From: an uncultured virus (IMG/VR IMGVR_UViG_2512564001_000011)
Taxonomy: Duplodnaviria; Heunggongvirae; Uroviricota; Caudoviricetes
Reading direction: 5' to 3' (one strand)
DNA length: 20,000 bases
Virus record (IMG/VR): IMGVR_UViG_2512564001_000011
A program made the position numbers and the translations under genes. Positions 1 to 13,858 of the stretch are shown here, piece after piece. Position 1 is the stretch's first letter. Each line of letters begins with the position of its first letter. The notes under the pieces were generated by a model, which was not told the DNA's origin, ran no database searches, and saw only the letters and a program-made list of their open reading frames with translations.

Positions 1-1
1 A

Positions 2-199
2 GGCTTCAAAAAAATCATTATTCACCCGCGTTGCAAACACACAATTGAAGAAGCGCGGCTATATTCGTACAAAATTGACCGTAATACGGGTGATGTTCTG
101 CCTGTCATTGTTGATGCTCACAATCACTGTTGGGACGCAGTGCGTTATTCTTTGGACGGGTATATCAAAGGCTCAGTCTCTTTTCTGGATACGCTATAG
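2..199 (+). CDS. Phage terminase large subunit (PBSX/Terminase_3C-like), 3' end only
   Basis: Frame 2 translates [65 protein letters not shown], containing the DxxNHxxDAxRY nuclease motif. TAG at 197-199. Not in the ORF track. Confidence 0.85.
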
Positions 200-212
200 T
201 GTATCACTGGGA

Positions 213-318
213 GTACAAAAACATTCGTTTTCGTACATCCTACAAAACGCCTGTACAAAAATAGGTTAAATTAATTTCGTACATCCCGTATAATAAGTAC
301 ATCCATTTCGTACAGGAG
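213..318. promoter_or_regulatory. Serine-resolvase res-like site with promoter/RBS but no resolvase gene
   Basis: Repeated inverted half-sites GTACAAAA / TTTCGTAC (e.g. GTACAAAAAC-ATTC-GTTTTCGTAC at 213-236), TATAAT at 289-294 and AGGAG at 314-318, with no ATG following. Confidence 0.55.
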
Positions 319-320
319 AA

Positions 321-731
321 ATCAAGAGAAGGAAGCGCACTTAAATCGCTTAAAAAATAAGCTAAAATTTAACCTCTCAAATTGCTTCCAAATATCAGAC
401 AAAAAATAGCCAACAGGCTGAGTTGGCTAACGGTGTTGAGAGGAAATTTTTATATAACTTTTTTATTTCCAATATGTAATGAGCAAATCCATCATAAGCA
501 TTCTACGAAACTAAATTTGCCAAGAAGATCGCATCTTCGACAATTAACATCATCATCGCTGTCATATCGTGCCAATAGGCTTTGCAGGGATGCTACGCAT
601 GGGTTACGTGCAATATATCAATCTCTCACCGCTTTGCGGGCTTCGGCGATTTAACTATTAACATTCTCTGTCACTATTGCGTGTCGCCTTCCATGCCTGA
701 CGGCATCAAAAACCTAAAACCGCCTGTAATC
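321..731. repeat. Copy 1 of a non-coding direct repeat (dso remnant plus hairpin-rich putative single-strand origin)
   Basis: 344-430 matches 8222-8309 and 477-731 matches 8371-8625 with scattered mismatches. Hairpins include TAGCCAAC-N7-GTTGGCTA, GAAGAT-CGC-ATCTTC and ATGCC-TGAC-GGCAT. Confidence 0.85.
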
Positions 732-930
732 GATTTCTTAGTGACAGATGAAGATAAAAATTTAATATCAGCTAATATGAACAATAGTAATATTATTTGA
801 TAGCTGAAACAAAGAAAGCAGCAAAAAATGGATCTATCTGAAACAAGTAAGGATAATTAAGCATCATTGAAGCTCATCAGCATTTTTTATGATAAATTTA
901 TTAAATAAATTAGATGTATAGAGATATTGA

Positions 931-1467
931 ATGACTGAACAAAAACGCCCTATTTTGATAATCAAAGGTAAACGAGGTTCAAAGGTTTCAACGCTTGAAT
1001 CAGCAGTTAAACCTACTTTAAAACCAAACAATAAGGCTCCAATTGCGCCTAAAACTGAGAAGAAACAGAAGGCTAAAAAAGCATCTAAAACAGCAAAAGT
1101 AAAACAGGAGCCACCAAAGCCAATTACCAAGGAAGAAAAGGCTGCCAGACATGCAGCTAAACTTAAAGCTGCTGTTGATATATTAGTAACGTTGTTCCCT
1201 AAAGTTTTTAATTTTGAATCACCAAAACCGCTAAAGGTGGGTATAGGTAAAGACATTAGAAAAATGATATCTGAAAAGGGGCTAGATATTCCAAATAGTC
1301 AGATAAGTACGGGGTTGATGGCTTATACACAAACTGAGGCTTATCAGAAATCTTTAGTTGAATTTGGTTCTCGTTTTAACCTAGATGGTTTGGTTGATGG
1401 AGAAGTTACCGATAAACAAAGAGAAAGAGCTAAGAAAAAACTTAATGAATTACAGGCTTCAAAGTGA
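931..1467 (+). CDS. ProQ/FinO-domain RNA chaperone with a Lys-rich N-terminus
   Basis: FPKVF..PKPLKVGI, YT...Y...L, RFNLDG..GEVT motifs of the ProQ/FinO domain. Confidence 0.9.
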   Translation: MTEQKRPILIIKGKRGSKVSTLESAVKPTLKPNNKAPIAPKTEKKQKAKKASKTAKVKQEPPKPITKEEKAARHAAKLKAAVDILVTLFPKVFNFESPKPLKVGIGKDIRKMISEKGLDIPNSQISTGLMAYTQTEAYQKSLVEFGSRFNLDGLVDGEVTDKQRERAKKKLNELQASK

Positions 1468-1550
1468 TTCATAGGTTTATTTTTTAAGGCTTAATCCTTT
1501 TTTTAGATACAGTCATGTATTTTTATTATAATAACTTTTGGTGATTAAAT

Positions 1551-1805
1551 ATGATGAAATTTTTAACTTTTTTTATAATAGTCTATTTTTCTATTCCAAC
1601 TTTTGCTCAAAGATTACCATTTTCTCCTCATAAACCAAATAATAATTCCCATTTATCTAAAAATTGTCCTCCAAATCTTTATTATGATTATAGAAATAGG
1701 ATTTGCCACAACTTAGATTATTCAATTACAGCTATTCCGGCTGAATGTCCAGATGACTATCCTATAGATAATAGAAGTGGGCTTTTTTATCAGTGTAAGT
1801 CTTAA
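1551..1805 (+). CDS. Small putative secreted protein with four Cys
   Basis: Sec-type signal MMKFLTFFIIVYFSIPTFA-Q; GGTGA upstream; Cys pairs in CPPNLYYDYRNRIC and CPDDYPIDNRSGLFYQC. Confidence 0.6.
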   Translation: MMKFLTFFIIVYFSIPTFAQRLPFSPHKPNNNSHLSKNCPPNLYYDYRNRICHNLDYSITAIPAECPDDYPIDNRSGLFYQCKS

Positions 1806-2083
1806 TAATTTTATATATTTAAATGTAAAAATTTAATGTATAGATATTATTAATATAAAACCCTATTTTATTTTCATTTTTCGCGGTGATAAAAATTTGA
1901 CTAAACCAGTAGTCCTAAAAGCAGTATTGGTAACTTTTAATCCGCCCTTACTGCATTTCAAAAAATTACCGCGCATAAAAATGGGATTGACGTGTGGTGC
2001 CAGCGAGGTAGAGGACTTGTTATATTTTACTCCCCCTACCTATCTGATCCTAAAATTAATTTTAATGTGAATCCAAAATTATA

Positions 2084-2338
2084 CTACTCCGCCTTAAATC
2101 CAGGTTTTCCGTTTTTGGCGCGCCATTCTTTTATTTCTTTTATGATAGCATTAGCGCTACCGTCATTATTTTCTGGATAGTAAATTAAGTCTGAACCACT
2201 AGGATGCCCTGTAACACTAATAAAATGTTCCAAATAATCGTCCTGCATTTTCTCATCACCTTCACAATTAATTATTGCCTCTATTATTCTTTTAAATTCA
2301 GATTCAGTGTAATCACTAATACTATTTTTAAGTTTCAT
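2084..2338 (-). CDS. Colicin E DNase / S-pyocin immunity protein
   Basis: [15 protein letters not shown]...[11 protein letters not shown]...[14 protein letters not shown] has the Im2/7/8/9 family signature and lies directly downstream of the toxin. Confidence 0.95.
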
Positions 2339-2343
2339 TATAA

Positions 2344-4153
2344 TTAACCTCGATGAATATCAATATGTCGTTTAGGTGTAGTTACTCTAATATTATCAAT
2401 ATCGTATACTTCACCATCTTTACTAATCGGTTTATCGTGATGTAGTTCAAATGAACGCCTCCCTCCAATAGTATCTTTATTTCTAGCTCGCGGAGCTAAA
2501 CCTTGACTCATTCTTTTTTTATTGCTAGGAATAAATTGCTTACTTAGTTCAGGATCTTTAGATACTTCTTGCCAAAATTTATTCCTGAATTCATCAAAAC
2601 TATTAAACTTTTTACCTCGTAATTTATCCGCAATCTGACTAGGTATTGGCGCACCAAGTTCTTTCCCCGCTTCTTCAAGCCATTTATCACCGACTTTTTT
2701 TCCGCTGCCACTGACAATACCTGGCTGATTTCGTTTTTTTTCCTTTTCAAGTTTATCTTCTGCCGCTCTTTTTTTATCTTCTGCCTTTTTGCGGCTTTCT
2801 ATGAAAGGCTGTAATTTTTTCTTCTGCTGTTCTATTTTTTTATGTGCATCAAGTAAACGTTCACCTAATGTACTAGAGAAAGCCCCAATTAAGACAGGCC
2901 CATAAGAGGTGATTATTTTACTATTATTGGTTTCTCTTTTTACTATTTCAGTAACATAAGCCTTAATCCCTTTTTGCAGTAGAATATTAATCAATGACAT
3001 ATCTCTTACTGCAATTTCTTTGCCCGTACTTTTTCGTTGTTCAGGAGTTTGTTGATATATCAAGGGATATTTTGCTGGATTAGATAATGTTAATCCTTCG
3101 GGTGTTGCCTGTAATTTATTTAGCGCTGACAATTCAGTTTGGTATTGTTTATCAATAGCAATGAAAGATTTATTGGCTATATCAAATTCCAATTGGGCGG
3201 CTTCAATGGGATGCATTGATGTCCATTCCCTTATAGCTTCTTCAACTTGCTTCTTTTCTTCTTTTTGATTGGGTATTCGTGATACAGAAACATAAATTGG
3301 TTCATGTTTTCCATCAAAATGAACAAAAGCATGATAACTATCTTTGGTTGATGGAGATGAAAGATAGGGATTAATCGCTGGCGTTGAATTGACCTTGGCT
3401 GAATGCTTAACTTGATTTTTATCAGGATTAACTCGGATATGCATAGGCTTCATGCCAGGGATAATTTGTGCTGTATATACATTAGGCTTGCTTGTCTTTT
3501 CTGCTTTAATAACCGCGATATTTGAAGTTTTTTGTTGCTTTGTAATTGCCATTTCGTGTTTTTTGTTATTCATATTAATAGCAAGTTCTGATAATACCTT
3601 TGTGGGAGCTTCGGTTCTTTTTGTTATATCACTAAGGGGAATTTCACTTACAATACTCGCCGGTAAACTAGTTATTTTATATCCTTGTGTTTTATCAGCT
3701 ATACTGAATGCTCGAGAATTAGTTAACATTTCTTGTTCTTTTTTTTCTGACACAATTGTATCATTTGGATATAAAGCCCCAGCAATAACACCCCCCTAGA
3801 AGACTTCCTGCATAAGGTAATGCCTTACTTAAATAATTAATACCTTGTACCAAAGCTGAATCAATTGCTGTCCAATTAATAGTAAAACCCAATACACCAT
3901 TAACAGGATAAACAGTCATTGGGATTGCTACATAAGACATTGTTGTCATCGCTTCGGGAGTTTTACTTAAATCAAGATTGTGTCGTGAAGAGGAGTTATG
4001 CCCTCCTCCATCTCCTCTTCCCTCTGGACCAGTCCCTCGCCCACTGCTACTTCCTCCTCCCCAAGGACTATTTTCTGAACTCCATCCAGAATGGTCAGAA
4101 GCATTAACTCCACGTTTTTTTCTTGTTTTTTGACTGTCTTTTTTTTCGTCCAT
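2344..4153 (-). pseudogene. Colicin E-type HNH DNase bacteriocin split by a frameshift at a G6 run
   Basis: N-terminal ORF has the TolB-box-like DHSGWSSENSPW and a Gly-rich segment. C-terminal ORF has a cloacin-type translocation region and the HNH domain [29 protein letters not shown]. Removing one base from CCCCCC (3791-3796) fuses them into 602 codons. Confidence 0.88.
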
Positions 4154-4174
4154 GCTAGCCTCTTTTAATTAAAT

Positions 4175-4194
4175 AACTGTATATATATACAGTA
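4175..4194. promoter_or_regulatory. LexA (SOS) box upstream of the bacteriocin
   Basis: CTGTATATATATACAG at 4177-4192 is a perfect consensus core about 24 nt upstream of the ATG. Confidence 0.93.
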
Positions 4195-4448
4195 CTTTAT
4201 GTTTATTAATTGTTAATTTCAAGGCTGATAAAATAAAAAACCAGCCATTGATAAGCTGGTTTGAAGTTTTCCCTGGTGCTAGCATGAAGTGGAGGAAATT
4301 TTATAATTTTAAATTTGCATTATGATGTCTTGAGTGATTGATGGTAGTCAGTATTTATATTCTTCGTACTCTCTATTATGGAGATAGATATTCTTGTCAT
4401 AGTGTGTTAAGGCTCAAAGAATATTGAGCCTTTGAAGTGATTTACTCG

Positions 4449-4727
4449 TTAATTTTTCCGATACTCAACCTTGCATTTTTCCAGTACAAAAATAAACAAA
4501 GGCACTTGAAACATAGCAAGTAAGCTATTAAGTGAGTAAAAATCCAACTTAATTTTTATATCTTCCAAGGTCTGTTTTATTGCTGGATAGCTAACAGAAC
4601 GTAAATGAGCAATTTCCCCTTGAGATAATCCAAGACAAAATAGTATTGCTGTTTCAAATTGGGCTGGCGTTAGCTCTGGAAACACGTCATGTAGCTCAGC
4701 AACGTTAGTTAAATCGAACATTCTCAT
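4449..4727 (-). CDS. LuxR-like HTH transcriptional regulator (copy 1)
   Basis: FPELTPAQFETAILFCLGLSQGEIAHLRSVS..AIKQTLEDIKIKL resembles a LuxR C-terminal HTH; ATGA overlap with the upstream gene; conserved second copy. Confidence 0.75.
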   Translation of the reverse strand: MRMFDLTNVAELHDVFPELTPAQFETAILFCLGLSQGEIAHLRSVSYPAIKQTLEDIKIKLDFYSLNSLLAMFQVPLFIFVLEKCKVEYRKN

Positions 4728-4906
4728 GCTACGCCCTCCATCACTGGCTTCCGTCCAGCCCAGATAAGGCGATCGTTTTTGAATAGCACGTTGAATATAC
4801 GACGTTCATTGCGAGTGAATGCTACTTTGCTAGAAGGTGTATTGGAATTTCTAGGGATGATCCAGTAGATATCAATAAATTTTGAGCAAGATTGGATTGT
4901 AGCCAT
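4724..4906 (-). CDS. Icd-like (host cell division inhibitor / ash-region) small protein (copy 1)
   Basis: Lies directly after the C4 target site; RBS GAGG; ends LIWAGRKP; conserved second copy. Confidence 0.65.
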   Translation of the reverse strand: MATIQSCSKFIDIYWIIPRNSNTPSSKVAFTRNERRIFNVLFKNDRLIWAGRKPVMEGVA

Positions 4907-4959
4907 AATTGCGGCCTCTTTCGTAGTTTTTAAAACCTCGCTCCCGATGCTAAACGGGG

Positions 4960-5040
4960 TGGCGAGACGTAAGTAGGGTTAGCATACTGGCACGAAAGAA
5001 ACCAGCGAACCTTTTAGGTTCCCCTGCTACGCCTCGCCAT
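4960..5040 (-). ncRNA. C4-type antisense RNA (copy 1)
   Basis: Closing stem TGGCGAGGCGTAG / CTTACGTCTCGCCA with inner hairpins. Exposed CTTTCGT and ATGCTAA are complementary to ACGAAAG and TTAGCAT targets found both upstream (5101-5121) and downstream (4918-4953). Confidence 0.85.
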
Positions 5041-5072
5041 AATAAGGACGTAACTTCGGTTTATGACGAACA

Positions 5073-5182
5073 TAAAAAAACCGCATTAAGCGGTAGTCCG
5101 CTTTCGTACTCAGGATGCTAAACCTGACACTAGATTAAGCTAGTGTTTTTAAACTATAGCTAATGCTCTAATTCATAATCAA
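5073..5182 (-). promoter_or_regulatory. Promoter, c4 a1/b1 target leader and attenuator (copy 1)
   Basis: Minus strand reads TTGATT..TATAGT, CACTAG hairpin, TCAGG-TTTAGCAT-CCTGA, ACGAAAG, then ACCGC-TTAAT-GCGGT followed by a U-tract. Confidence 0.75.
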
Positions 5183-5195
5183 GATGTTTTTGTTA

Positions 5196-5423
5196 TTAAA
5201 TTTTATCTTCAAGTTTATCCAGTTCATAATCCGATAAACCTGTAGAGAGTTTTACAGTATTACGATCAACACCATTGTCTAAAAATTGTTTAGCAAGATT
5301 CAGAGTAGTTTCTTTTTTTTCTTTTTGTCTACCCTCTTGAATCCCTTCAATTTTACCTCGTTGTAATCCTTCTTGAATGCCTTCAACTTTGCCTTCTTGT
5401 CTCAATGCTTGAGCAATAGTCAT
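5196..5423 (-). CDS. Internally initiated RpnS antitoxin, 75 aa (copy 1)
   Basis: In-frame ATG (MTIAQ) preceded by AAGGAG-CACTT. Confidence 0.75.
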   Translation of the reverse strand: MTIAQALRQEGKVEGIQEGLQRGKIEGIQEGRQKEKKETTLNLAKQFLDNGVDRNTVKLSTGLSDYELDKLEDKI

Positions 5424-6152
5424 AAGTGCTCCTTCGTGTTTTTCTGATTGTTTGGCTATCTCGGTGATAAATTCCATTGGTTTTTGTGCATTCCCTTCTT
5501 GGATGAGATAGTTAAACATAGTGATAATCTGATTATCGGTATAATAATTATACGACAAGAGTTTAACAATACTATCCAGTAACTCAGTCATATCCCGTCT
5601 TCGAATGTGTTTTTGGAGTAACTCAAGCAATGCTATTCGCTTGTGTTGCATAATCTCGCCATCATCAAGCGTGGTGACATCAGCTAATTTAAAGGGATTG
5701 TTATAGATATTTTCTGCCAGCTTTCTATCTTCAAAGCAGTCAAGCCAATGAGTGCTATAGGGGTGAGGACTTTGTTCACCGCAGTAGAACAGGATAGGAA
5801 AAACTAACGGTAATTGCTTATTTCCCTGCTCTAGATGCTTGTGCATAGCAGACATACTATATCGCATTAATCGCCATGCAATGAGTTTATCAGGGGTGGA
5901 CTGATGCTCAATTAATACGTAGATATATCCACTTCCCTTTGTTGTGCTGACTGAATACAGAATATCACTCTGGTAATTTTTCATCTCACTATCGATAAAT
6001 GAGCCAGATTCCACTTTTAGGCTATCTAAGTTACACAGGGCTTTAATCTCATCTGGTAGCCAGATATCAAAGAAATCTTTTGCCGTCTCTTTTTCGCTTA
6101 AAAACTGTTTGAATATGGCATCATGGGGAGTGGGGGTAAATTTTTTAGTCAT
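5196..6152 (-). CDS. Rpn family recombination-promoting nuclease (YhgA-like, PD-(D/E)XK), copy 1
   Basis: TPHDAIFK, SDILYS, IEHQS and LLELLQKHIR motifs; C-terminal EG repeats. Confidence 0.95.
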   Translation of the reverse strand: MTKKFTPTPHDAIFKQFLSEKETAKDFFDIWLPDEIKALCNLDSLKVESGSFIDSEMKNYQSDILYSVSTTKGSGYIYVLIEHQSTPDKLIAWRLMRYSMSAMHKHLEQGNKQLPLVFPILFYCGEQSPHPYSTHWLDCFEDRKLAENIYNNPFKLADVTTLDDGEIMQHKRIALLELLQKHIRRRDMTELLDSIVKLLSYNYYTDNQIITMFNYLIQEGNAQKPMEFITEIAKQSEKHEGALMTIAQALRQEGKVEGIQEGLQRGKIEGIQEGRQKEKKETTLNLAKQFLDNGVDRNTVKLSTGLSDYELDKLEDKI

Positions 6153-6270
6153 TAAGGTTAATGCCTTGTGTTGCCTAACTATGAGTTTACGTTGTTATTT
6201 TTATAAATCCTAATGAAACGCTGTATTCTATATCATATGTTATTTTATTAATTTTAATTTGTTTTTATTG

Positions 6271-6314
6271 TTGATTTTATATTCAATTTACTTATACTGT
6301 TTATTTATACAGCT
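6271..6314 (+). promoter_or_regulatory. Second LexA box overlapping a sigma70-like promoter
   Basis: TACTGTTTATTTATACAG (core 6297-6312); TTGATT-N16-TATACT at 6271-6298. Confidence 0.7.
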
Positions 6315-6529
6315 CTTATGAATTATGTTAGTTTTACTATAGAACTATAGATAAGAATGAAAGCAGCCAAAAAGTAAGAAAAACTTTTAGTAATAATCAT
6401 AAAGGTGTACAAAAAAAACGATAAAATAACATTAATTTAGTTTAAAGTAATTTTTTATCTTTAATCATTGAAATTAAAACATATGATTAATATATTAAAA
6501 ATAATAATAAAAATGGAAAGGAAATAATT

Positions 6530-6781
6530 ATGTACGAAATTGATCTGTCGAAAAATGAAGGCGAAAATAAATCGGAAACTGGAATTATGTCAACAATGAA
6601 AGGTTCTACTGTTAATAATGAAGAAAGATTTATAAAATTTAAAGAACCAAATTTAAATATTAATATTAATGTTAATGTTGATGGTTCTTTTAGTGCAAAA
6701 GATTTAATCTCGATTGTTAAGGATTTTACAAATGAATATATTAAGAATATAAGTAAAATAACATCTTCAATAACAGAATAA
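6530..6781 (+). CDS. Hypothetical protein, very AT-rich
   Basis: 83-codon ORF with AAGGA RBS; no recognisable motif. Confidence 0.5.
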   Translation: MYEIDLSKNEGENKSETGIMSTMKGSTVNNEERFIKFKEPNLNININVNVDGSFSAKDLISIVKDFTNEYIKNISKITSSITE

Positions 6782-7033
6782 TAATAGATTTTTAAGTAAA
6801 GTTAATCAGAGTGAAAATTTTAAATTTTTGCAAGTAACTATTTTTACTCTGATATATTTTTCTCTTGATTTGATTTTTAATGAAATAAAATAACAACAAA
6901 AAATAAGAATCTAAAAGATTCCTTTTGGCATCTTAATAGAATCTTAATTATTTTGTAAATTTTTATCAATAAAACAAAAAATGAAAAATAGCATTTTCAA
7001 AATGCAAAATTTTAAGTTTTCAAAAATCCTTTT

Positions 7034-8062
7034 TTAACTCGCAAATCCGCTATCTCCCTTCCTAAATCGTCGATATTGCTTATCACTAGTCCGCCAGTTG
7101 AACGCCACTCTAACTTTAGCATCATCGTCAGAAGGTTCCGATTCTGCATCTACATGAATCAATGACTCATCGGTTTCTGGTTCAGTCGATTTAAATACAT
7201 GTTTGAGTGCTCCGCCGGATGCAATAAATTTCAGATAGTGAACCTAATTAAAATACTCCAACATCCATTCACGATTATTCACTAATGTCTCTGGTTTAAC
7301 GGAATAATTAAACGCCTTTAAGACTTCTACCGCTGCTTTATCCGGTGTTCCCTTCACTGCTCGAACATCAACAATCGGCAGGGTATCCAATTTCATGCAT
7401 TCACCCCAAATTTCTGACCAGCGAGATTGTTTTGTGTAATTATCTCCACGAAACCAAGAAGACGATACCATCAGAAGACAATGGAAATGAGGATGGGCAT
7501 AATTTTTACGTTTAGTTTCACAAGTTACTTCTGTTTTCCTAATCCAGCCCTTTACGGACTTAAACTCTTTACGTTTAACAAATCTATGCCAAGCTAGGTT
7601 CATTAATTTTAACTCATCCCTTAAGGAATCAATAGGAACATTAGGCACGGTTAAGGTCATAAATACCCAACGCGCTTTAGAATAATCATTAAGAATTTCA
7701 GGGAGTGATTTTTTAAACATAGCCATATGCCTCAATGATCTTCTTCCATCGCATACTGGACAGTGGCGACAGTGACAGAAATAAACCTCTATTAACTTTA
7801 TAAGAAATTCACCCGTCTCTTTATCAATATGGGGATAATATTTCAAAATATCAGCACAAGAGCTTATTCTTGTTGACCATTTATCGAAATCAGTTCCTAA
7901 TAAGACCTCAGAAAGTAATTCACTTGCAGCTTTCATTTTATCAAATTTAGCATCTTTTGGACTCATTTCTGAAAGTGATATATCATTAGATATGTCTTTA
8001 GTATTTACAGAATTAAGCGGTTCGCATATGCTATACGAACTTCCGACAATGAAGTTAGACAT
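7034..8062 (-). pseudogene. Rolling-circle initiator (Rep_1, pC194/pUB110 family) with one in-frame TAG
   Basis: FC..RHCPVC, FMTLTVPN, HPHFH (HUH) and YSVKP (catalytic Tyr) motifs. After TAG at 7244-7246 the frame continues VHYLKFIASGGALKHVF...FNW...KQYRR to TAA at 7034-7036 (342 codons in total). Confidence 0.88.
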
Positions 8063-8067
8063 TTAAA

Positions 8068-8129
8068 AAGCCTTGTTTGATTTGAGATTAAGCACCTACA
8101 AATCTACAAGGCTTCTTTATACTTGTCAA
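8068..8129. promoter_or_regulatory. rep promoter and leader hairpin (probable antisense copy-control region)
   Basis: Minus-strand TTGACA-N17-TAGATT; stem AAGCCTTGT..GATTTG / CAAATC.ACAAGGCTT at 8068-8114. Confidence 0.55.
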
Positions 8130-8194
8130 ATGTTAACTAAAGCCAGTAACCACAAGGGTTAAACAACTAAATTCCATCCGCCAATACGTTTCTA

Positions 8195-8213
8195 TATTAT
8201 CAAGTAAAGAAGA
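8195..8213 (-). other. Double-strand origin (nick site) of pC194 type
   Basis: Minus strand TCTTCTTTACTTGATAATA contains the family core CTTG^ATA, just upstream of rep. Confidence 0.8.
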
Positions 8214-8221
8214 GACTCCTG

Positions 8222-8625
8222 AATCGCTTAAAAAATAAGCGAAAATCTAACCTCTCAAATCGCTTCCAAATTTCAGGCAAAAATATAGCCAACGGGCTGA
8301 GTTGGCTAAATAATGTGATGGAATTTTTATTTTTAATTTTATGTAGCGTTCTTATTGGCAATAAGAACATTAATGAGCAAATCCATCATAAGCATTCTAC
8401 GAAACGAAATTTGCCTAGAAGATCGCATCTTCGACAATTAACATCAGACTCGCTGTCATATCGTGCCAATAGGCTTTGCAGGGATGCTACGCATGGGTTA
8501 CGTGAAATATATCAATCCCTCACCGCTTCGCGGGCTTCGGCGATTTGATTATCGAAGTTTTCTGTTACGACTGAGTGTCGCCTTCCATGCCTGACGGCAT
8601 CAAAAATCTAAAATCGCCTGTAATC
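8222..8625. repeat. Copy 2 of the non-coding direct repeat (putative sso region)
   Basis: Matches 344-430 and 477-731. Confidence 0.85.
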
Positions 8626-8778
8626 AATTATAAGCCTATCAAATTAAAAATCGCTACCCATTGAGTTGCCTATATCAAGAAAACGCCGTAGAGAGCGTTA
8701 CAGGTAGCTTAAAATTGATTTTTTGCCGTAGCATGTTAAGACTCAACAAATATTGAACCTTTAAAGTGATTTAATTTT

Positions 8779-9057
8779 TTAATTTTTTCGATACTCAACC
8801 TTGCATTTTTCTAATACGAAAATAAACAAACGCACTTGAAACATGGCAAGCAAGTTATTGAGTGAGTAAAAATTTAACTTAACTTTAATATCTTCAAGTG
8901 TTTGATTAATTGCTGGATAACTCACAGAGCGTAGATGAGCAATCTCCCCTTGAGATAGTCCAAGACAGAACAATATTGCTGTTTCAAATTGAGCTGGCGT
9001 TAGCTCTGGAAACACGTCATGTAATTCAGCAACGTTAGTTAAATCAAACATTCTCAT
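8779..9057 (-). CDS. LuxR-like HTH transcriptional regulator (copy 2)
   Basis: Nearly identical protein to 4449-4727. Confidence 0.75.
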   Translation of the reverse strand: MRMFDLTNVAELHDVFPELTPAQFETAILFCLGLSQGEIAHLRSVSYPAINQTLEDIKVKLNFYSLNNLLAMFQVRLFIFVLEKCKVEYRKN

Positions 9058-9251
9058 GCTACGACCTCCATCACTGGCTTCCGTCCAGCCCAGATAAGGC
9101 GATCGTTTTTGAATAACATTTTGAATATACGACGGTCATTACGAGTAAATGAGACTTTGCTAGAAGGTGTATTGGAGTTTCTAGGAATGATCCAGTAGGT
9201 ATCAATAAATTTAGATTTTTTTAGATGAGTTTGATGTTGGATAGTCGCCAT
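9054..9251 (-). CDS. Icd-like small protein (copy 2), 65 aa
   Basis: Start re-assigned to MATIQ (ATG at 9251, RBS GGAG) by homology with copy 1; the longer ORF call runs through the C4 RNA. Confidence 0.65.
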   Translation of the reverse strand: MATIQHQTHLKKSKFIDTYWIIPRNSNTPSSKVSFTRNDRRIFKMLFKNDRLIWAGRKPVMEVVA

Positions 9252-9313
9252 AGGTGCGATCTCCGTTAGTTTGTTTTGGAAATCACCGCTAGAGGTTACA
9301 ATCTCTGTAATGG

Positions 9314-9391
9314 CGGTGACGTTATTAAGGTTGTAACTACTGGTACTAACGGAACCAGCCAATCCTAAGATTGCCCTAACAACGCCACCAT
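9314..9391 (-). ncRNA. C4-type antisense RNA (copy 2)
   Basis: Closing stem GGTGGCGTTGTTAGGG / CCTTAATAACGTCACC. Exposed CCGTTAGTA and GTTACAA are complementary to targets at 9449-9472 and 9263-9301. Confidence 0.85.
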
Positions 9392-9544
9392 AGAATACAG
9401 GAGGACATCGTCTGTGACATAAAAAAAGACGCTAGGCGTCTAATGTCGCCGTTAGTACTTTCAGGGTTACAAACCTGACACTAGATTTTTCTAGTGCTTT
9501 TTAACTATAACTAATGATTTAACCCATAAGCAATATTTTTATGA

Positions 9545-9748
9545 TTAAATTTTGTTTTCAAGTTGATTAAGCTGCTCATCTGATAATCCCGTAGAAATTT
9601 TCACCATATTACGATCAGCTCCATTAGCTAGAAACTGTTTAGCTAGTTTAATTCTTTCTTGTTGCATTCCCTCTTGAATACCTTCAATTTTACCTCTTTG
9701 TAATCCTTCTTGGATCCCTTCTTGTCTTAATGCTTGAGCAATAGTCAT
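9545..9748 (-). CDS. Internally initiated RpnS antitoxin, 67 aa (copy 2)
   Basis: In-frame AAGGAG-CACTT-ATG. Confidence 0.75.
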   Translation of the reverse strand: MTIAQALRQEGIQEGLQRGKIEGIQEGMQQERIKLAKQFLANGADRNMVKISTGLSDEQLNQLENKI

Positions 9749-10477
9749 AAGTGCTCCTTCGTGTTTTTCTGATTGTTTGGCTATCTCGGTGATAAATTCC
9801 ATTGGTTTTTGTGCATTCCCTTCTTGGATGAGATAGTTAAACATAGTGATAATCTGATTATCGGTATAATAATTATACGACAAGAGTTTAACAATACTAT
9901 CCAGTAACTCAGTCATATCCCGTCTTCGAATGTGTTTTTGGAGTAACTCAAGCAATGCTATTCGCTTGTGTTGCATAATCTCGCCATCATCAAGCGTGGT
10001 GACATCAGCTAATTTAAAGGGATTGTTATAGATATTTTCTGCCAGCTTTCTATCTTCAAAGCAGTCAAGCCAATGAGTGCTATAGGGGTGAGGACTTTGT
10101 TCACCGCAGTAGAACAGGATAGGAAAAACTAACGGTAATTGCTTATTTCCCTGCTCTAAATGCTTATGCATAGCAGACATACTATAACGCATTAATCGCC
10201 ATGCAATGAGCTTGTCAGGGGTGGACTGATGCTCAATTAACACGTAGATATATCCGCTGCCCTTTGTTGTGCTGACTGAATACAGAATATCACTCTGATA
10301 GTTTTTCATCTCACTATCAACAAATGACCCTGATTCTACTTTTAAGCTGTCTAAGTCACACAGGGCTTTAATCTCATCAGGCAACCAAATATCGAAGAAA
10401 TCTTTAGCCGTCTCTTTCTCACTTAAAAACTGTTTAAATATGGCATCATGGGGAGTGGGGGTAAATTTTTTAGTCAT
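9545..10477 (-). CDS. Rpn family nuclease, copy 2
   Basis: Same motifs as copy 1; nearly identical up to the internal Met, with a divergent C-terminus. Confidence 0.95.
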   Translation of the reverse strand: MTKKFTPTPHDAIFKQFLSEKETAKDFFDIWLPDEIKALCDLDSLKVESGSFVDSEMKNYQSDILYSVSTTKGSGYIYVLIEHQSTPDKLIAWRLMRYSMSAMHKHLEQGNKQLPLVFPILFYCGEQSPHPYSTHWLDCFEDRKLAENIYNNPFKLADVTTLDDGEIMQHKRIALLELLQKHIRRRDMTELLDSIVKLLSYNYYTDNQIITMFNYLIQEGNAQKPMEFITEIAKQSEKHEGALMTIAQALRQEGIQEGLQRGKIEGIQEGMQQERIKLAKQFLANGADRNMVKISTGLSDEQLNQLENKI

Positions 10478-10909
10478 TAAGGTTAATGCCTTGTTTTACC
10501 TAAAACTTGATTGACGAGTTTATCACAAGACACTAATATATTTTTGTTGAGAGTAATTCTCATCTTCTTCAAGTTTCCTTTTAGTAAATTATAGAAAATA
10601 GTATTATTCAATGCGCTGTTGTCATTTGCAGCGCATTTTTATTTTTCCCTTTCATACTTGCCGCAGAAATCAATTTTAAGCGCCATAGAACGCGCTGTAC
10701 GGCGTTTTCGTTCTTTCAGTCATCAAATGGCATTCATTCAAGCGCAGAATAGCTTGTATGGGTTGATATTGAGTTTAGGTATTAAAGACATATCAAGCAC
10801 ACACTACTAACTGCGAACCAACCCTGCGTACTTCGTTGCGCACCAAATATTGAGAACTTAGCAAAACTATACATAAAGCGTGACCGCGCCCCTCTGGAAG
10901 TTCGAGTGA

Positions 10910-10967
10910 TCTTCCGCTTCCTCGCCCATTCGCTCGCTGCGCTCGGTCATGGACTCCGGCGAGCGGG
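10910..10967. other. ssiA / primosome assembly site of ColE1/ColE2-type plasmids
   Basis: TCTTCCGCTTCCTCGCCCATTCGCTCGCTGCGCTCGGTCATGGACTCCGGCGAGCGG closely follows the pBR322/ColE1 sequence CTTCCGCTTCCTCGCTCACTGACTCGCTGCGCTCGGTCGTTCGGCTGCGGCGAGCGG. Confidence 0.75.
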
Positions 10968-11068
10968 CTGAGCTAAGAAAAACTGCAATGTTTCGGGATC
11001 AAGGGAAAAAGCCCATCAAACCCACGCCCCACAAGGGATTATGGCAAAAAACAAAAACCCCCTGCGGG

Positions 11069-11103
11069 GGCTGTTATCTGATATAGGCTTGTTTTCAGTG
11101 CAA
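11069..11103 (-). other. ColE2-type origin, second variant
   Basis: GGCTGTTATCTGATATAGG core (the TATCAGATAACAG primer site on the minus strand), directly after the stop codon of a Rep fragment. Confidence 0.8.
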
Positions 11104-11245
11104 TCAAAGCATGCCTTTTTGCTTCCGGTAATAATACGTCCGCCGACTGATGCCTAACTCCGTCCACGGCTTTCGCTGCTCGATGGAACCTACGATAATG
11201 CTACCTTCTGGCCTACCACCGCCATGACTAATCTTGCCGCCTCTA
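11104..11245 (-). pseudogene. Orphan C-terminal DNA-binding segment of a second ColE2-type Rep
   Basis: RGGKISHGGGRP...KPWTELGISRRTYYYRKQKGML aligns with the end of the intact Rep (SHGGGRP..EPWFKLGISRRTYFRWRQAGKI). Confidence 0.8.
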
Positions 11246-11524
11246 GAATAATTTTTTTTCTGAACATTCGCACGGTCACCATACCAATCGGAGTGCAATA
11301 CCACAACTTTCGCACCCTAACCAAATTCGCCCAACCACACTCAACCCTAGAGAAGGGAAGCTGCAAAGTGAGAAAGTGCAAATTCTCAAGGCCAGTGCAC
11401 TACTTTCGCAGTTTCTATACCAGACTGAGCTACTTTAACTGATTTTTCTTTTAATACCCGTCAAGCCCAGAGCTGGCCTGGCTCTACAGCGTTCTACCTA
11501 ACCAAGGTCAAAACCACCCCGAGA

Positions 11525-11556
11525 GGCTGTTATCTGATATAGGTTGTTTAGTGCCA
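11525..11556 (-). other. ColE2-type origin cognate to the intact Rep
   Basis: GGCTGTTATCTGATATAGGTTGTTTAGTGCCA, a few bp past the rep stop codon. Confidence 0.85.
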
Positions 11557-11563
11557 CGCACGG

Positions 11564-12466
11564 TCAAATTTTGCCAGCCTGTCTCCAACGAAAATACGTC
11601 CGGCGGCTAATTCCAAGTTTAAACCAAGGTTCACCAAGAGACGGCCTGCCCCCACCATGACTCTTTCTTCCTCTTGCAGCCTGTATATCTGGCGTATGCG
11701 TCCTAGCCACGTACTCAGCAAAGGTTTTCTCAGTGAAGCGTTTATGCGTCCATTTAGCGATACTCTTAGCGATCGCTTTCACCTCTGGCTCACTGAGGGG
11801 AACGGGGAATTGCACATTGTAGCCCATTGCACGCTCAAAGCACGCAGCGAACCACTGTGCGAAAGCAGGCCAGCCACGACGAATAGCCCTATACGCCCAC
11901 TTGCGCGTTTTCTCAAAGACAGTGCAATTACGGCCTAGTCCATAAGTTGACTCAATTAACGGTGCATTCGCAGCGCTTAAATCAAGGTAATCAGCAAGCT
12001 CATCCAGAGTGTAAGGTTCGTGTCGCCATTGTGTAATTTGCCAATCTGAATGATTAGGATTCTTGCAAAGCAGATTGCCGTAATTCGGATCTGCATCCAA
12101 TTTCATACGAAGTCCATTCTGAACCGCAGCACCGTATTTCAATGCAGCCATGCTTCCATCTGGTGCAGTGCGAACGCCGGGGTTGACGATGTAGTATCCG
12201 TGCGCATGTGTGTTTGCTTTTGTCATTGCACTGATGTTGAATGGAGGGCAACCTCTTTCATCCCAACCGATAGCACCGCCTTGATAATCAAGATCGTAGG
12301 CAAATACAGCCATTGAGTGAGGCGGATTATGCTGAATGTAGCGCTTTAAGATGGCTTGCGCTTGAGGCAAGATTCGCACGCCACAGCAAAAATCATCGGT
12401 GCAATAAGGCTTGCGAGGTAGATTCTGGTTGAAGTAGTCGAGCGCTTTGTTATTCAAGAGCACCAA
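11564..12466 (-). CDS. ColE2-family replication initiator (primase Rep; Replicase, PriCT-1 and HTH)
   Basis: LPRKPYCTDDF..GVRILP, HAH, VRTAPD, CKNP, PYTLDELADYLDL, GLGRNC and THTPDIQAARGRK motifs. Exact start codon uncertain. Confidence 0.93.
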   Translation of the reverse strand: MVLLNNKALDYFNQNLPRKPYCTDDFCCGVRILPQAQAILKRYIQHNPPHSMAVFAYDLDYQGGAIGWDERGCPPFNISAMTKANTHAHGYYIVNPGVRTAPDGSMAALKYGAAVQNGLRMKLDADPNYGNLLCKNPNHSDWQITQWRHEPYTLDELADYLDLSAANAPLIESTYGLGRNCTVFEKTRKWAYRAIRRGWPAFAQWFAACFERAMGYNVQFPVPLSEPEVKAIAKSIAKWTHKRFTEKTFAEYVARTHTPDIQAARGRKSHGGGRPSLGEPWFKLGISRRTYFRWRQAGKI

Positions 12467-12514
12467 ACTTATGGCAGATCTGTTGTTTTAGGCTAGACAT
12501 GTGATATTATTCCT

Positions 12515-12600
12515 CTTGAAAAACTGTTGTTTTACGAGTACGCCCTAAATGATCATGCTTTCTGCCAAGAATTCACATGGTTTTTAGGGCTTTGCTTTTT
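12515..12600 (+). ncRNA. Probable RNA I-like antisense copy-control RNA
   Basis: Antisense to the rep leader; long stem GCCCTAAA..CATG / CATG..TTTAGGGC (12542-12590) followed by U-rich sequence; TATTAT just upstream. Confidence 0.55.
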
Positions 12601-12642
12601 CTGCACATACTTTACTCAAATCTCTTCATAATGTCATCTCCG

Positions 12643-12779
12643 TTGAAATTAGCGCCCTAACGCGGTATATTCCATACGTTGCCACTAATGGGCAATCAGG
12701 GTTAAGAGCCTGAATGTACAAGCGGACTACCGCTTATTAATGCGGTTTTTTTATGTCCGTCGTAAACCGAAGTTGCGTC
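12643..12779 (+). promoter_or_regulatory. Third c4 a1/b1 leader (promoter, target hairpin, attenuator); C4 RNA body deleted
   Basis: TTGAAA-N17-TATATT; TCAGG-GTTAAGAG-CCTGA; 12721-12779 is an inverted near-copy of 5047-5102. Confidence 0.7.
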
Positions 12780-13369
12780 TGGAGCAAGGAAACAAGCAGT
12801 TGCCCGTGGTGATCCCGCTTCTCTTCTACCACGGCACCAAGTCGCCCTATCCCTATACCACTCATTGGTTAGACTGTTTTTCAGATCGGAAGTTGGCTGA
12901 ATCTGTGTACGCTCAGGCATTCCCACTCGTTGATCTGACAGTGATAGAAGACGAGGAAATCTTAAGCCATCGAAAAGTGGCACTGATGGAAATCGTCCAA
13001 AAGCACATTCGCACCCGTGATATGCTAGAATTGGCAGTAGAAATCGCTAGTTTGTTGGAAAATTGGCAATTTTCCAAAGAACAGTGTAATACTTTGATAC
13101 AGTATCTATTATTGGCGGGAAATACAGCAGACGGCGATGTGTTTATTCGTAAACTGGCAGAACACGCGCCTAGTTATCGGGAGGATTTTATGACAATTGC
13201 AGAACAGCTTGAAGCTAGAGGTGAGGCTAGAGGCTACCAGCTAGGCCAAAAGGATGCTTCTACTAAAATTGCTCAACAACTGCTAGCCAATGGCGCAGAG
13301 CGCAATCTGATAAAGATTGCTACTGGTTTGTCTGATGAAGAACTAGACACGCTAGCAACTAAGATTTAA
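12779..13369 (+). pseudogene. 5'-truncated rpn (third, divergent copy) lacking the catalytic N-terminus
   Basis: Rpn homology begins abruptly at LEQGNKQLP; the SDILYS and IEHQS motifs are absent. Confidence 0.85.
13190..13369 (+). CDS. Intact RpnS antitoxin, 59 aa, inside the truncated rpn
   Basis: GGAGG-ATTTT-ATG, MTIAEQLEARG...TGLSDEEL. Confidence 0.7.
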   Translation: MTIAEQLEARGEARGYQLGQKDASTKIAQQLLANGAERNLIKIATGLSDEELDTLATKI

Positions 13370-13758
13370 ATGTTTATTTTTACGCTATGTTAAAGTACAA
13401 TCTGTTCACCTAGTAATCCGCCTAAATGAGCCTGATTATTAGCACAGGGAAGTTGCGCCTAAAATAAATTACTTAGTAAAAGAACCTAATATACTGAAAA
13501 TAAAGACTTTTATCTATCCTTCATCATCTTATTAATACATCTATAGTCCTCGATATCTTTTTATATAAATCTATTTAAGTTAATTGATATCACAGCTTGT
13601 CTGATTAAAATTCAAACAAAAAAATAAACTTGGTAGCCTGAAACGAAAGTTTTTATTGGCTAGGGATTGCTATTGCCTATGATTCCCATACCCAAAACAT
13701 AAATCCTCAATCAATTTTGGTGGGGGCTTTTCTTTTTTTCACACCAGATCACAACTGA

Positions 13759-13858
13759 NNNNNNNNNNNNNNNNNNNNNNNNNNNNNNNNNNNNNNNNNN
13801 NNNNNNNNNNNNNNNNNNNNNNNNNNNNNNNNNNNNNNNNNNNNNNNNNNNNNNNNNN
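13759..13858. other. Assembly gap (100 N)
   Basis: Run of N; adjacency of the two sides is not proven. Confidence 1.

Follow-up and report, generated by a model that had tools for sequence, protein, structure and literature searches.

Two C4-type antisense RNA cassettes with different target words on a plasmid-like segment of an uncultured virus record

The DNA considered here is a 20,000-nucleotide stretch (the window) of the uncultured virus record IMGVR_UViG_2512564001_000011, which carries two cassettes for RNAs of the C4 antisense family on a plasmid-like segment. Each cassette comprises a leader with two target words (a1 and b1), a C4 RNA with the corresponding loop words (a' and b'), a second pair of target words (a2 and b2), a small open reading frame (ORF) and a gene for a helix-turn-helix (HTH) protein. 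These features, together with a third leader, are given below with lengths in amino acids (aa) and Shine-Dalgarno sequences abbreviated to SD.

5153..5182, minus strand: predicted sigma70 promoter of cassette 1, TTGATT-18-TATAGT, a consensus match alone
5074..5146, minus strand: leader 1, of the isrK/c4-a1b1 type, with hairpin, a1 and b1; antiterminator/terminator at 5074-5101
4955..5044, minus strand: C4 RNA copy 1, b' CUUUCGU and a' AUGCUAA
4918..4953, minus strand: a2/b2 of copy 1, b2 overlapping the SD GAGG
a1 5115-5121, b1 5101-5107, b' 4992-4998, a' 4979-4985, a2 4947-4953, b2 4918-4924, minus strand: sites of copy 1
4724..4906, minus strand: 60-aa ORF of copy 1 at the icd position, its stop overlapping the HTH start (ATGA)
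4449..4727, minus strand: 92-aa stand-alone LuxR/GerE-type HTH protein of copy 1
9504..9533, minus strand: candidate promoter of cassette 2, TTGCTT-18-TATAGT
9422..9497, minus strand: leader 2, with a1 and b1, antiterminator GGCG/CGCC and terminator 9441-9420
9309..9395, minus strand: C4 RNA copy 2, b' CCGUUAGU and a' GUUACAA
9263..9301, minus strand: a2/b2 of copy 2, b2 overlapping the SD GGAG
a1 9466-9472, b1 9449-9456, b' 9345-9352, a' 9331-9337, a2 9295-9301, b2 9263-9270, minus strand: sites of copy 2
9054..9251, minus strand: 65-aa ORF of copy 2
8779..9057, minus strand: 92-aa HTH protein of copy 2, 94.6% identical in aa to that of copy 1
12643..12779, plus strand: orphan leader 3, with promoter TTGAAA-17-TATATT, a1 TTAAGAG (12702-12708), b1 GTACAAG (12716-12722) and terminator

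Against the Rfam C4 covariance model (RF01695), copy 1 scores 64.3 bits and copy 2 scores 73.3, both above the gathering score of 45, and every target and loop word that a preliminary description of this DNA had read from the letters is present at the sites listed above. These scores and the site layout bear out its claim that C4 family members with a P1-type architecture reside on a plasmid. The same description held that the architecture is kept in both copies, which stands for the attenuator logic and fails for the attenuator sequence (GCGG/CCGC/GCGG versus GGCG/CGCC/GCGT). Leaders 1 and 2 score 51.6 and 60.7 with the isrK model (RF01394, cut-off 50), and leader 3 scores 32.6. Multiplying the frequencies of the four single sites in 200,000 composition-preserving shuffles gives a joint chance of finding all four of approximately 3e-9 for copy 1 and 1e-10 for copy 2. 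Minimum free energy folds of the RNAs (-39.8 and -34.3 kcal/mol) have three stems, place b' in the loop of a hairpin and leave a' single-stranded, and in full-transcript folds a' and b' are predicted to pair back onto a1 and b1 in cis. Both a GG start and a 3' tail (ACC/GCCA) can be read in the C4 sequences, and the mature RNAs predicted by analogy with P1 span 5038-4958 (81 nt) in copy 1 and 9389-9312 (78 nt) in copy 2. P1-like phages are 71-75% identical to the leader-to-target block of copy 1.

The source record (G000) has 143,904 bases interrupted by 14 runs of N. Positions 1-13759 of the window are part of a single N-bounded piece of 16.8 kb, and the phage genes past 13860 are separated from this plasmid-like piece by an N gap. 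Three queried stretches of the window match NZ_CP123516.1, a circular plasmid of 16,832 bases from the insect-dwelling bacterium Arsenophonus nasoniae, at 100%; this plasmid encodes an integrase, a terminase large subunit, ProQ/FinO and a DNase bacteriocin with an immunity gene, as well as two rep, three rpn and two HTH genes. DNA contigs from sequencing run X1, which is possibly not independent of the window, cover 4756-5433, 9375-9745 and 10748-13700 with 0 differences, the last contig crossing the junction between leader 3 and rpn. A different run, X4, contains the entire copy 1 block (4850-5200), also with 0 differences. No contig among those listed spans both copies, so it is the assembly and the plasmid record that link them. 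The record holds a third C4 RNA in a phage context (L002:1501-1589, corresponding to G000:74401-74489), with a1/b1 words TTAGCAG/CAAAAAG and no a2/b2 within 75 nt.

The words of copies 1 and 2 differ at 4 of 7 positions (a) and 2 of 7 positions (b, in the best register). Cognate arm duplexes have energies of -13.0/-13.7 and -16.4/-17.3 kcal/mol and swapped duplexes only -5.8 to -8.9, an advantage for cognate pairs of 4-11 kcal/mol. Because of these word differences and the weaker swapped duplexes, the two copies are likely non-cross-reactive, insofar as this can be judged from sequence. The P1 words (TTGACAG/GTTAGTG) and P7 words (TTAGCAG/GATTGTG) differ at 2+2 positions, and four changed nucleotides are enough to abolish cross-reaction between these phages, according to a passage of PMC5320573 that cites Citron and Schuster (1990).

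The preliminary description attributed the difference between the copies to compensatory changes at all three positions, which is not how this pair arose. Their flanks are 91% (rpn), 88.5% (HTH) and 82% (ORF) identical, whereas identity in the regulatory block of about 240 nt falls to 52% in the leader, 45% in the spacer, 58% in the C4 RNA and 49% in a2b2. The C4 scaffolds with a'/b' taken out are 55% identical. Divergent scaffolds inside conserved flanks rule out compensation by point mutation and indicate a module swap, such that the whole leader-C4-target block was probably exchanged by recombination between mobile elements. The nearest relatives of copy 1 are in paNv_CH15 and paIh7 (81%), and those of copy 2 are in paNv_CAN17 (100%, same code) and then paPv15 (85%, different code). 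True three-site covariation is found instead among close scaffolds, for example between copy 2 and paPv15. A possible snapshot of a module swap is present in one Arsenophonus genome (G001), where the cassette at G001:C14:51516 has the C4 RNA and a2/b2 of that at G001:C64:16572 with its a1/b1 leader unmatched.

The genes under control are not those of P1. The small ORF had been termed Icd-like, but it has no similarity to P1 Icd: there is no BLAST alignment, the HHalign probability is 0.8%, no NCBIfam model matches and the PHROGs differ. Similarly, a LuxR-type HTH protein of 92 aa is found in place of an antirepressor, which removes Ant as a candidate for the second gene. The sole PHROG match of the ORF is phrog_6928, no phage match was found for it, and all named hosts of its 16 homologues are insect symbionts. 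A longer frame of the copy 2 ORF (102 aa, from 9362) has a Phage_ASH match, which is likely explained by this frame reading through the C4 RNA. A profile search with the HTH protein matched LuxR-type domains (VraR, E 3e-8). Its structure model has a predicted local distance difference test (pLDDT) score of 79.9, and VraR/LiaR LuxR-type C-terminal domains top the fold searches, all at E > 0.001, with nothing at E 0.001 or better. Matches to the HTH protein occur in 73 plasmid records (37 from Arsenophonus, 22 from Serratia), with no relatives in the viral_contigs collection and two loci in genome_contigs.

The preferred reading is that two C4 cassettes with different target words share one plasmid-like segment and that each quite probably represses only its own ORF and the predicted coupled HTH gene, as C4 does in P1 and P7. 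One promoter would give a single transcript of leader, C4, ORF and HTH, an order that is seen in the sequence, and RNase P would excise the C4 RNA of about 80 nt. RNase P processing of C4 is noted in a passage of PMC5320573 citing Hartmann (1995). By pairing with a1/b1, the RNA would open the antiterminator and let the intrinsic terminator form. The b1 word overlaps the 5' arm of the hairpin that competes with this terminator, and forcing b1 to be unpaired changes the antiterminator energy from -7.4 to -2.3 kcal/mol in copy 1, from -5.0 to 0 in copy 2, from -7.9 to -2.3 in leader 3 and from -7.0 to -2.3 in P1. Pairing with a2/b2 would mask the SD of the ORF and so also keep the coupled HTH gene off. 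The HTH protein might then be made only when the cognate C4 RNA is missing, such as right after the element enters a cell. Different codes would likely come from swapping the whole leader-C4-target block, fed by a large pool of reassorting a and b words.

Several points weigh against this reading. The c4-a1b1 model (RF03163) gives 34.6 and 28.6, both under its cut-off of 46.7. The cassette 2 promoter has a weak -35 element and was missed by the promoter scan. Cross-talk of some degree is possible, since swapped duplexes retain -6 to -9 kcal/mol and the b words have 5 of their 7 bases in common. In full-length folds of leader 3 the terminator forms already without C4, and attenuation therefore hinges on kinetics. 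RNA sequencing run X19 contributes 5 contigs, whose listed pieces are short, lie outside both C4 cores and are uninformative on expression or processing. An 'entry switch' role for the HTH protein is conjectural. Lastly, close HTH relatives on five other plasmids lack a C4 RNA.

These C4-less relatives have a different leader, in which a hairpin of the form TAGCCAGA-variable loop-TCTGACTA stands ahead of a GAGG SD and occurs in 4 loop variants among the 5 plasmids (L121:1660, L122:2485, L123:464, L124:490 and L125:2001, upstream of the HTH starts). This variable-loop leader is a candidate for a second antisense control, and further related sites are present at L127:2433-2508 and near L128:4001. 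A Klebsiella homologue has sub-threshold symR/R1162 antisense matches.

A search of 32 genomes of the genus Arsenophonus yielded 97 C4 matches (92 over the cut-off) in 10 genomes, 21 of which fall in G001. Pooling these with 15 window and plasmid rows, P1 and P7 gave 114 rows, of which 113 were parsed and 103 were unique; matches in L004, L012 and L015 were excluded as presumed duplicates, and removal of P1, P7 and one row without upstream sequence left 100 cassettes. Cognate matches were found among these for a1 in 86, b1 in 78, a2 in 70 and b2 in 71, with all four in 52, compared to 230, 569, 166 and 507 non-cognate matches, respectively, among 9,900 pairs (2-6% versus 70-86%). Sixteen strain-level entries, four of which are Nasonia-strain entries brought together from separate isolates, contain 12 codes that use 10 different a words and 9 different b words. 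These words reassort: one a word is combined with 3 b words, and each of two b words with 2-3 a words. Genome G008 repeats the code of copy 1 beside an HTH gene whose product is just 46.5% identical. Carriers of C4-ORF-HTH cassettes include rolling-circle, linear protelomerase, mobilisable and large plasmids, and the cassettes lie mostly behind rpn. Among the plasmids, L006, L009, L010 and L007 are satellite-like linear elements of 8-12 kb with a protelomerase and/or a terminase small subunit plus a primase-like gene. In genome G032, nine near-identical C4s (C21, C23, C26, C35, C36, C44, C54, C85 and C88) have a'/b' words mismatched to their own flanks.

It might be proposed that the cassettes are prophage-derived relics that travel with rpn, with RNAs that still fold and controlled genes of little weight. 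The accumulation of C4s in G001, the patchwork nature of the plasmid (integrase, terminase and two rep genes plus a third, truncated cassette) and a C4-less fragment on another plasmid (L019) would all agree with this proposal. However, 14 of the 15 unique cassettes with an HTH gene downstream retain all four sites (the fifteenth has lost its leader) even though HTH identity drops to 44%. Also, 16 alignment columns of the ORF are invariant in 18 homologues, and the HTH protein is encoded on all seven small plasmids paPv12-18. A relic origin seems quite improbable.

Alternatively, as the preliminary description implied, the codes might be kept distinct by selection against cross-talk between co-resident elements, which would then form true groups of immunity or incompatibility. 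In one strain, the five complete cassettes carried by named plasmids differ pairwise by at least 2+2 bases, and same-code repeats occur in 0 of 25 within-group pairs compared to 4 of 95 between-group pairs. The within-group result has P=0.40 by label shuffling, however, and over the 100 cassettes the cross-matches within genomes number 9 in 1,166 pairs (52 in 8,734 between genomes) against a permutation mean of 7.2. Selection for orthogonality is therefore not demonstrated, since same-genome cross-matching is not depleted, and because the code space is large (47 a words in the 100 cassettes) orthogonality would arise by chance. Selection of this kind is somewhat unlikely, though less so than a relic origin.

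Leader 3 had been presented as a third switch with yet another loop. It ends at 12779 before any C4 RNA and is the remnant left by a deletion, joined to a partial rpn gene. In an X4 contig the end of leader 3 continues into sequence from downstream of a C4 (joint 4972/12781), which fits an undeleted relative and an origin by simple deletion. No intact homologue of leader 3 was found among the plasmids. The fused frame and the two other rpn genes are as follows.

12740..13369, plus strand: frame joining leader sequence to the 3' two thirds of rpn (Pfam positions 99-201), SD and MTIA retained
5196..6152, minus strand: rpn copy 1, Transposase_31/Rpn family, 318 aa, with internal SD and MTIA at aa 244
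9545..10477, minus strand: rpn copy 2, 310 aa, with a C-terminal four-residue repeat array shorter than that of copy 1

The features of rpn membership are present (Transposase_31 domain, internal SD and start, variable four-residue repeats), with an internal SD and MTIA start in all three frames and C-terminal repeats that vary among them. The MTIA start at aa 244 of rpn copy 1 is a candidate RpnS antitoxin start. Because four-residue repeats set toxin-antitoxin specificity in Rpn toxins with an intragenic antitoxin (described in part of PMC10400941), this repeat variation may be a second per-copy code.

Another explanation is that the plasmids are phage satellites. The C4-gated HTH protein would turn on genes of a helper phage or of conjugation, and another element would be de-repressed by a short IsrK-like RNA that leader 3 makes as a decoy. 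Related plasmids do encode a terminase small subunit, a protelomerase and a primase, and some HTH homologues are located directly after relaxase genes, one being annotated as TraJ. IsrK, the Rfam match of the leaders, activates its downstream operon in trans (in the portion of PMC4825925 concerned with it), and leader 3 has a terminator and a promoter with 10 of 12 matching positions. Yet the resemblance to TraJ is slight (E 0.003, 2 of 32 members) and generic for LuxR HTHs; no C4 RNA with the full leader 3 code was found in viral_contigs (0 hits) or in G000, its b word alone matching co-resident paPv15; and the joint in X4 suits a simple deletion. A satellite role of this type is unlikely. 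Also improbable is a broader scheme in which the a x b RNA code would be a self-recognition tag of Arsenophonus small plasmids and satellites, gating a shared LuxR/TraJ-like activator that fires on host entry and switches on genes of a helper phage or for transfer. Orphan leaders would then serve as decoys against C4, and on other plasmids this HTH family would be gated by the second, unrelated variable-loop antisense leader.

The segment that carries the two cassettes has two replication genes.

7244..8062, minus strand: Rep_1 gene for rolling-circle replication, situated between the cassettes; the frame stops at 7244 (Pfam 3-189 of 253)
11564..12466, minus strand: Replicase/PriCT_1 rep gene divergent from leader 3, presumably of the ColE2 type

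Upstream of the latter, 12467-12593 (minus strand) gives a sub-threshold PK-repBA match (31.9 versus 45). A non-coding, origin-like region is duplicated at 321-735 and 8199-8629 (82-92% identical), which suggests a cointegrate of small replicons. A DNase colicin/pyocin with an immunity gene lies at 2084-4153 (minus strand), where the cloacin-type N-terminal part occupies its own 130-aa ORF (3761-4153) ahead of a 469-aa ORF. ProQ/FinO genes are present on plasmids of this set, in the window (931-1467, plus strand), at L009:4052-4588 and at L019:2998-3342, twice adjoining an HTH gene, and their products are possible RNA chaperones for these antisense RNAs.

Knowledge of C4 and its code-based heteroimmunity has so far come from a single phage pair and from bioinformatic alignments. 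In the present cassettes the module lies outside the icd-ant context, over a different regulator and on unrelated small replicons. The natural library (12 codes on one gene set and the many a words of the genus sample) makes C4 pairing rules directly testable, including the number of mismatches tolerated and the relative weight of a versus b, and offers a source of orthogonal RNA repressors. Attention is also drawn to an uncharacterised HTH protein that recurs on every small plasmid of one symbiont strain.

Parts of this picture have precedents in the literature. C4 and c4-a1b1 are among the motifs listed in PMC2864571. According to passages of PMC5320573, many C4-like small RNAs with variable a' loops occur in one genome of Acinetobacter baumannii (group 1), and c4 and isrK pairs are mentioned for the insect-symbiont phage APSE in part of 10.1101/2020.03.17.996009. 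These passages contain no small-plasmid C4, HTH control or a-by-b reassortment, and the literature may already hold target covariation. Plasmid-rich Arsenophonus strains are covered by 10.1101/2023.05.02.539033, in whose main text the word 'antisense' has 0 occurrences.

The closest known system is the ImmI operon of P1 and P7, c4-icd-ant1/2 (P1 ImmI is described in passages of PMC8198154 and PMC6906374). The site order a1, b1, c4, a2, b2, ORF is the same, as are the three-stem RNA, the position of b2 on the SD, the GCGG/CCGC/GCGG attenuator, the specificity that a and b words would set and the 4-nt overlap of the small ORF with the next gene. In contrast to ImmI, the cassettes lie on a small multi-rep plasmid that lacks sim, ant and kilA, their ORF is unrelated to Icd, the second gene encodes a LuxR-type HTH protein rather than Ant, and two codes occur on one replicon and five in one strain. 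P4 resembles the cassettes by description, although its kil/alpha operon is absent here. The CA RNA of N15 is of the same type as P4 CI, a processed antisense RNA on a plasmid-like phage. The likeness to P4 CI RNA (seqA/seqC) consists of a processed antisense RNA with upstream and downstream targets, premature termination and a satellite phage; P4 CI RNA and IsrK are both described in part of PMC4825925. Gifsy-1 IsrK-orf45-anrP of Salmonella (RF01394) is comparable in that leaders 1 and 2 exceed the isrK cut-off and that a terminated leader is combined with read-through to a small ORF; the regulator to which this ORF is coupled is the antirepressor AnrP there and an HTH protein here. Overall, the RNAs are C4 family members and the operon would work like ImmI yet is not ImmI; what is new is its location on a plasmid, the different genes under its predicted control and the library of codes that reassort.

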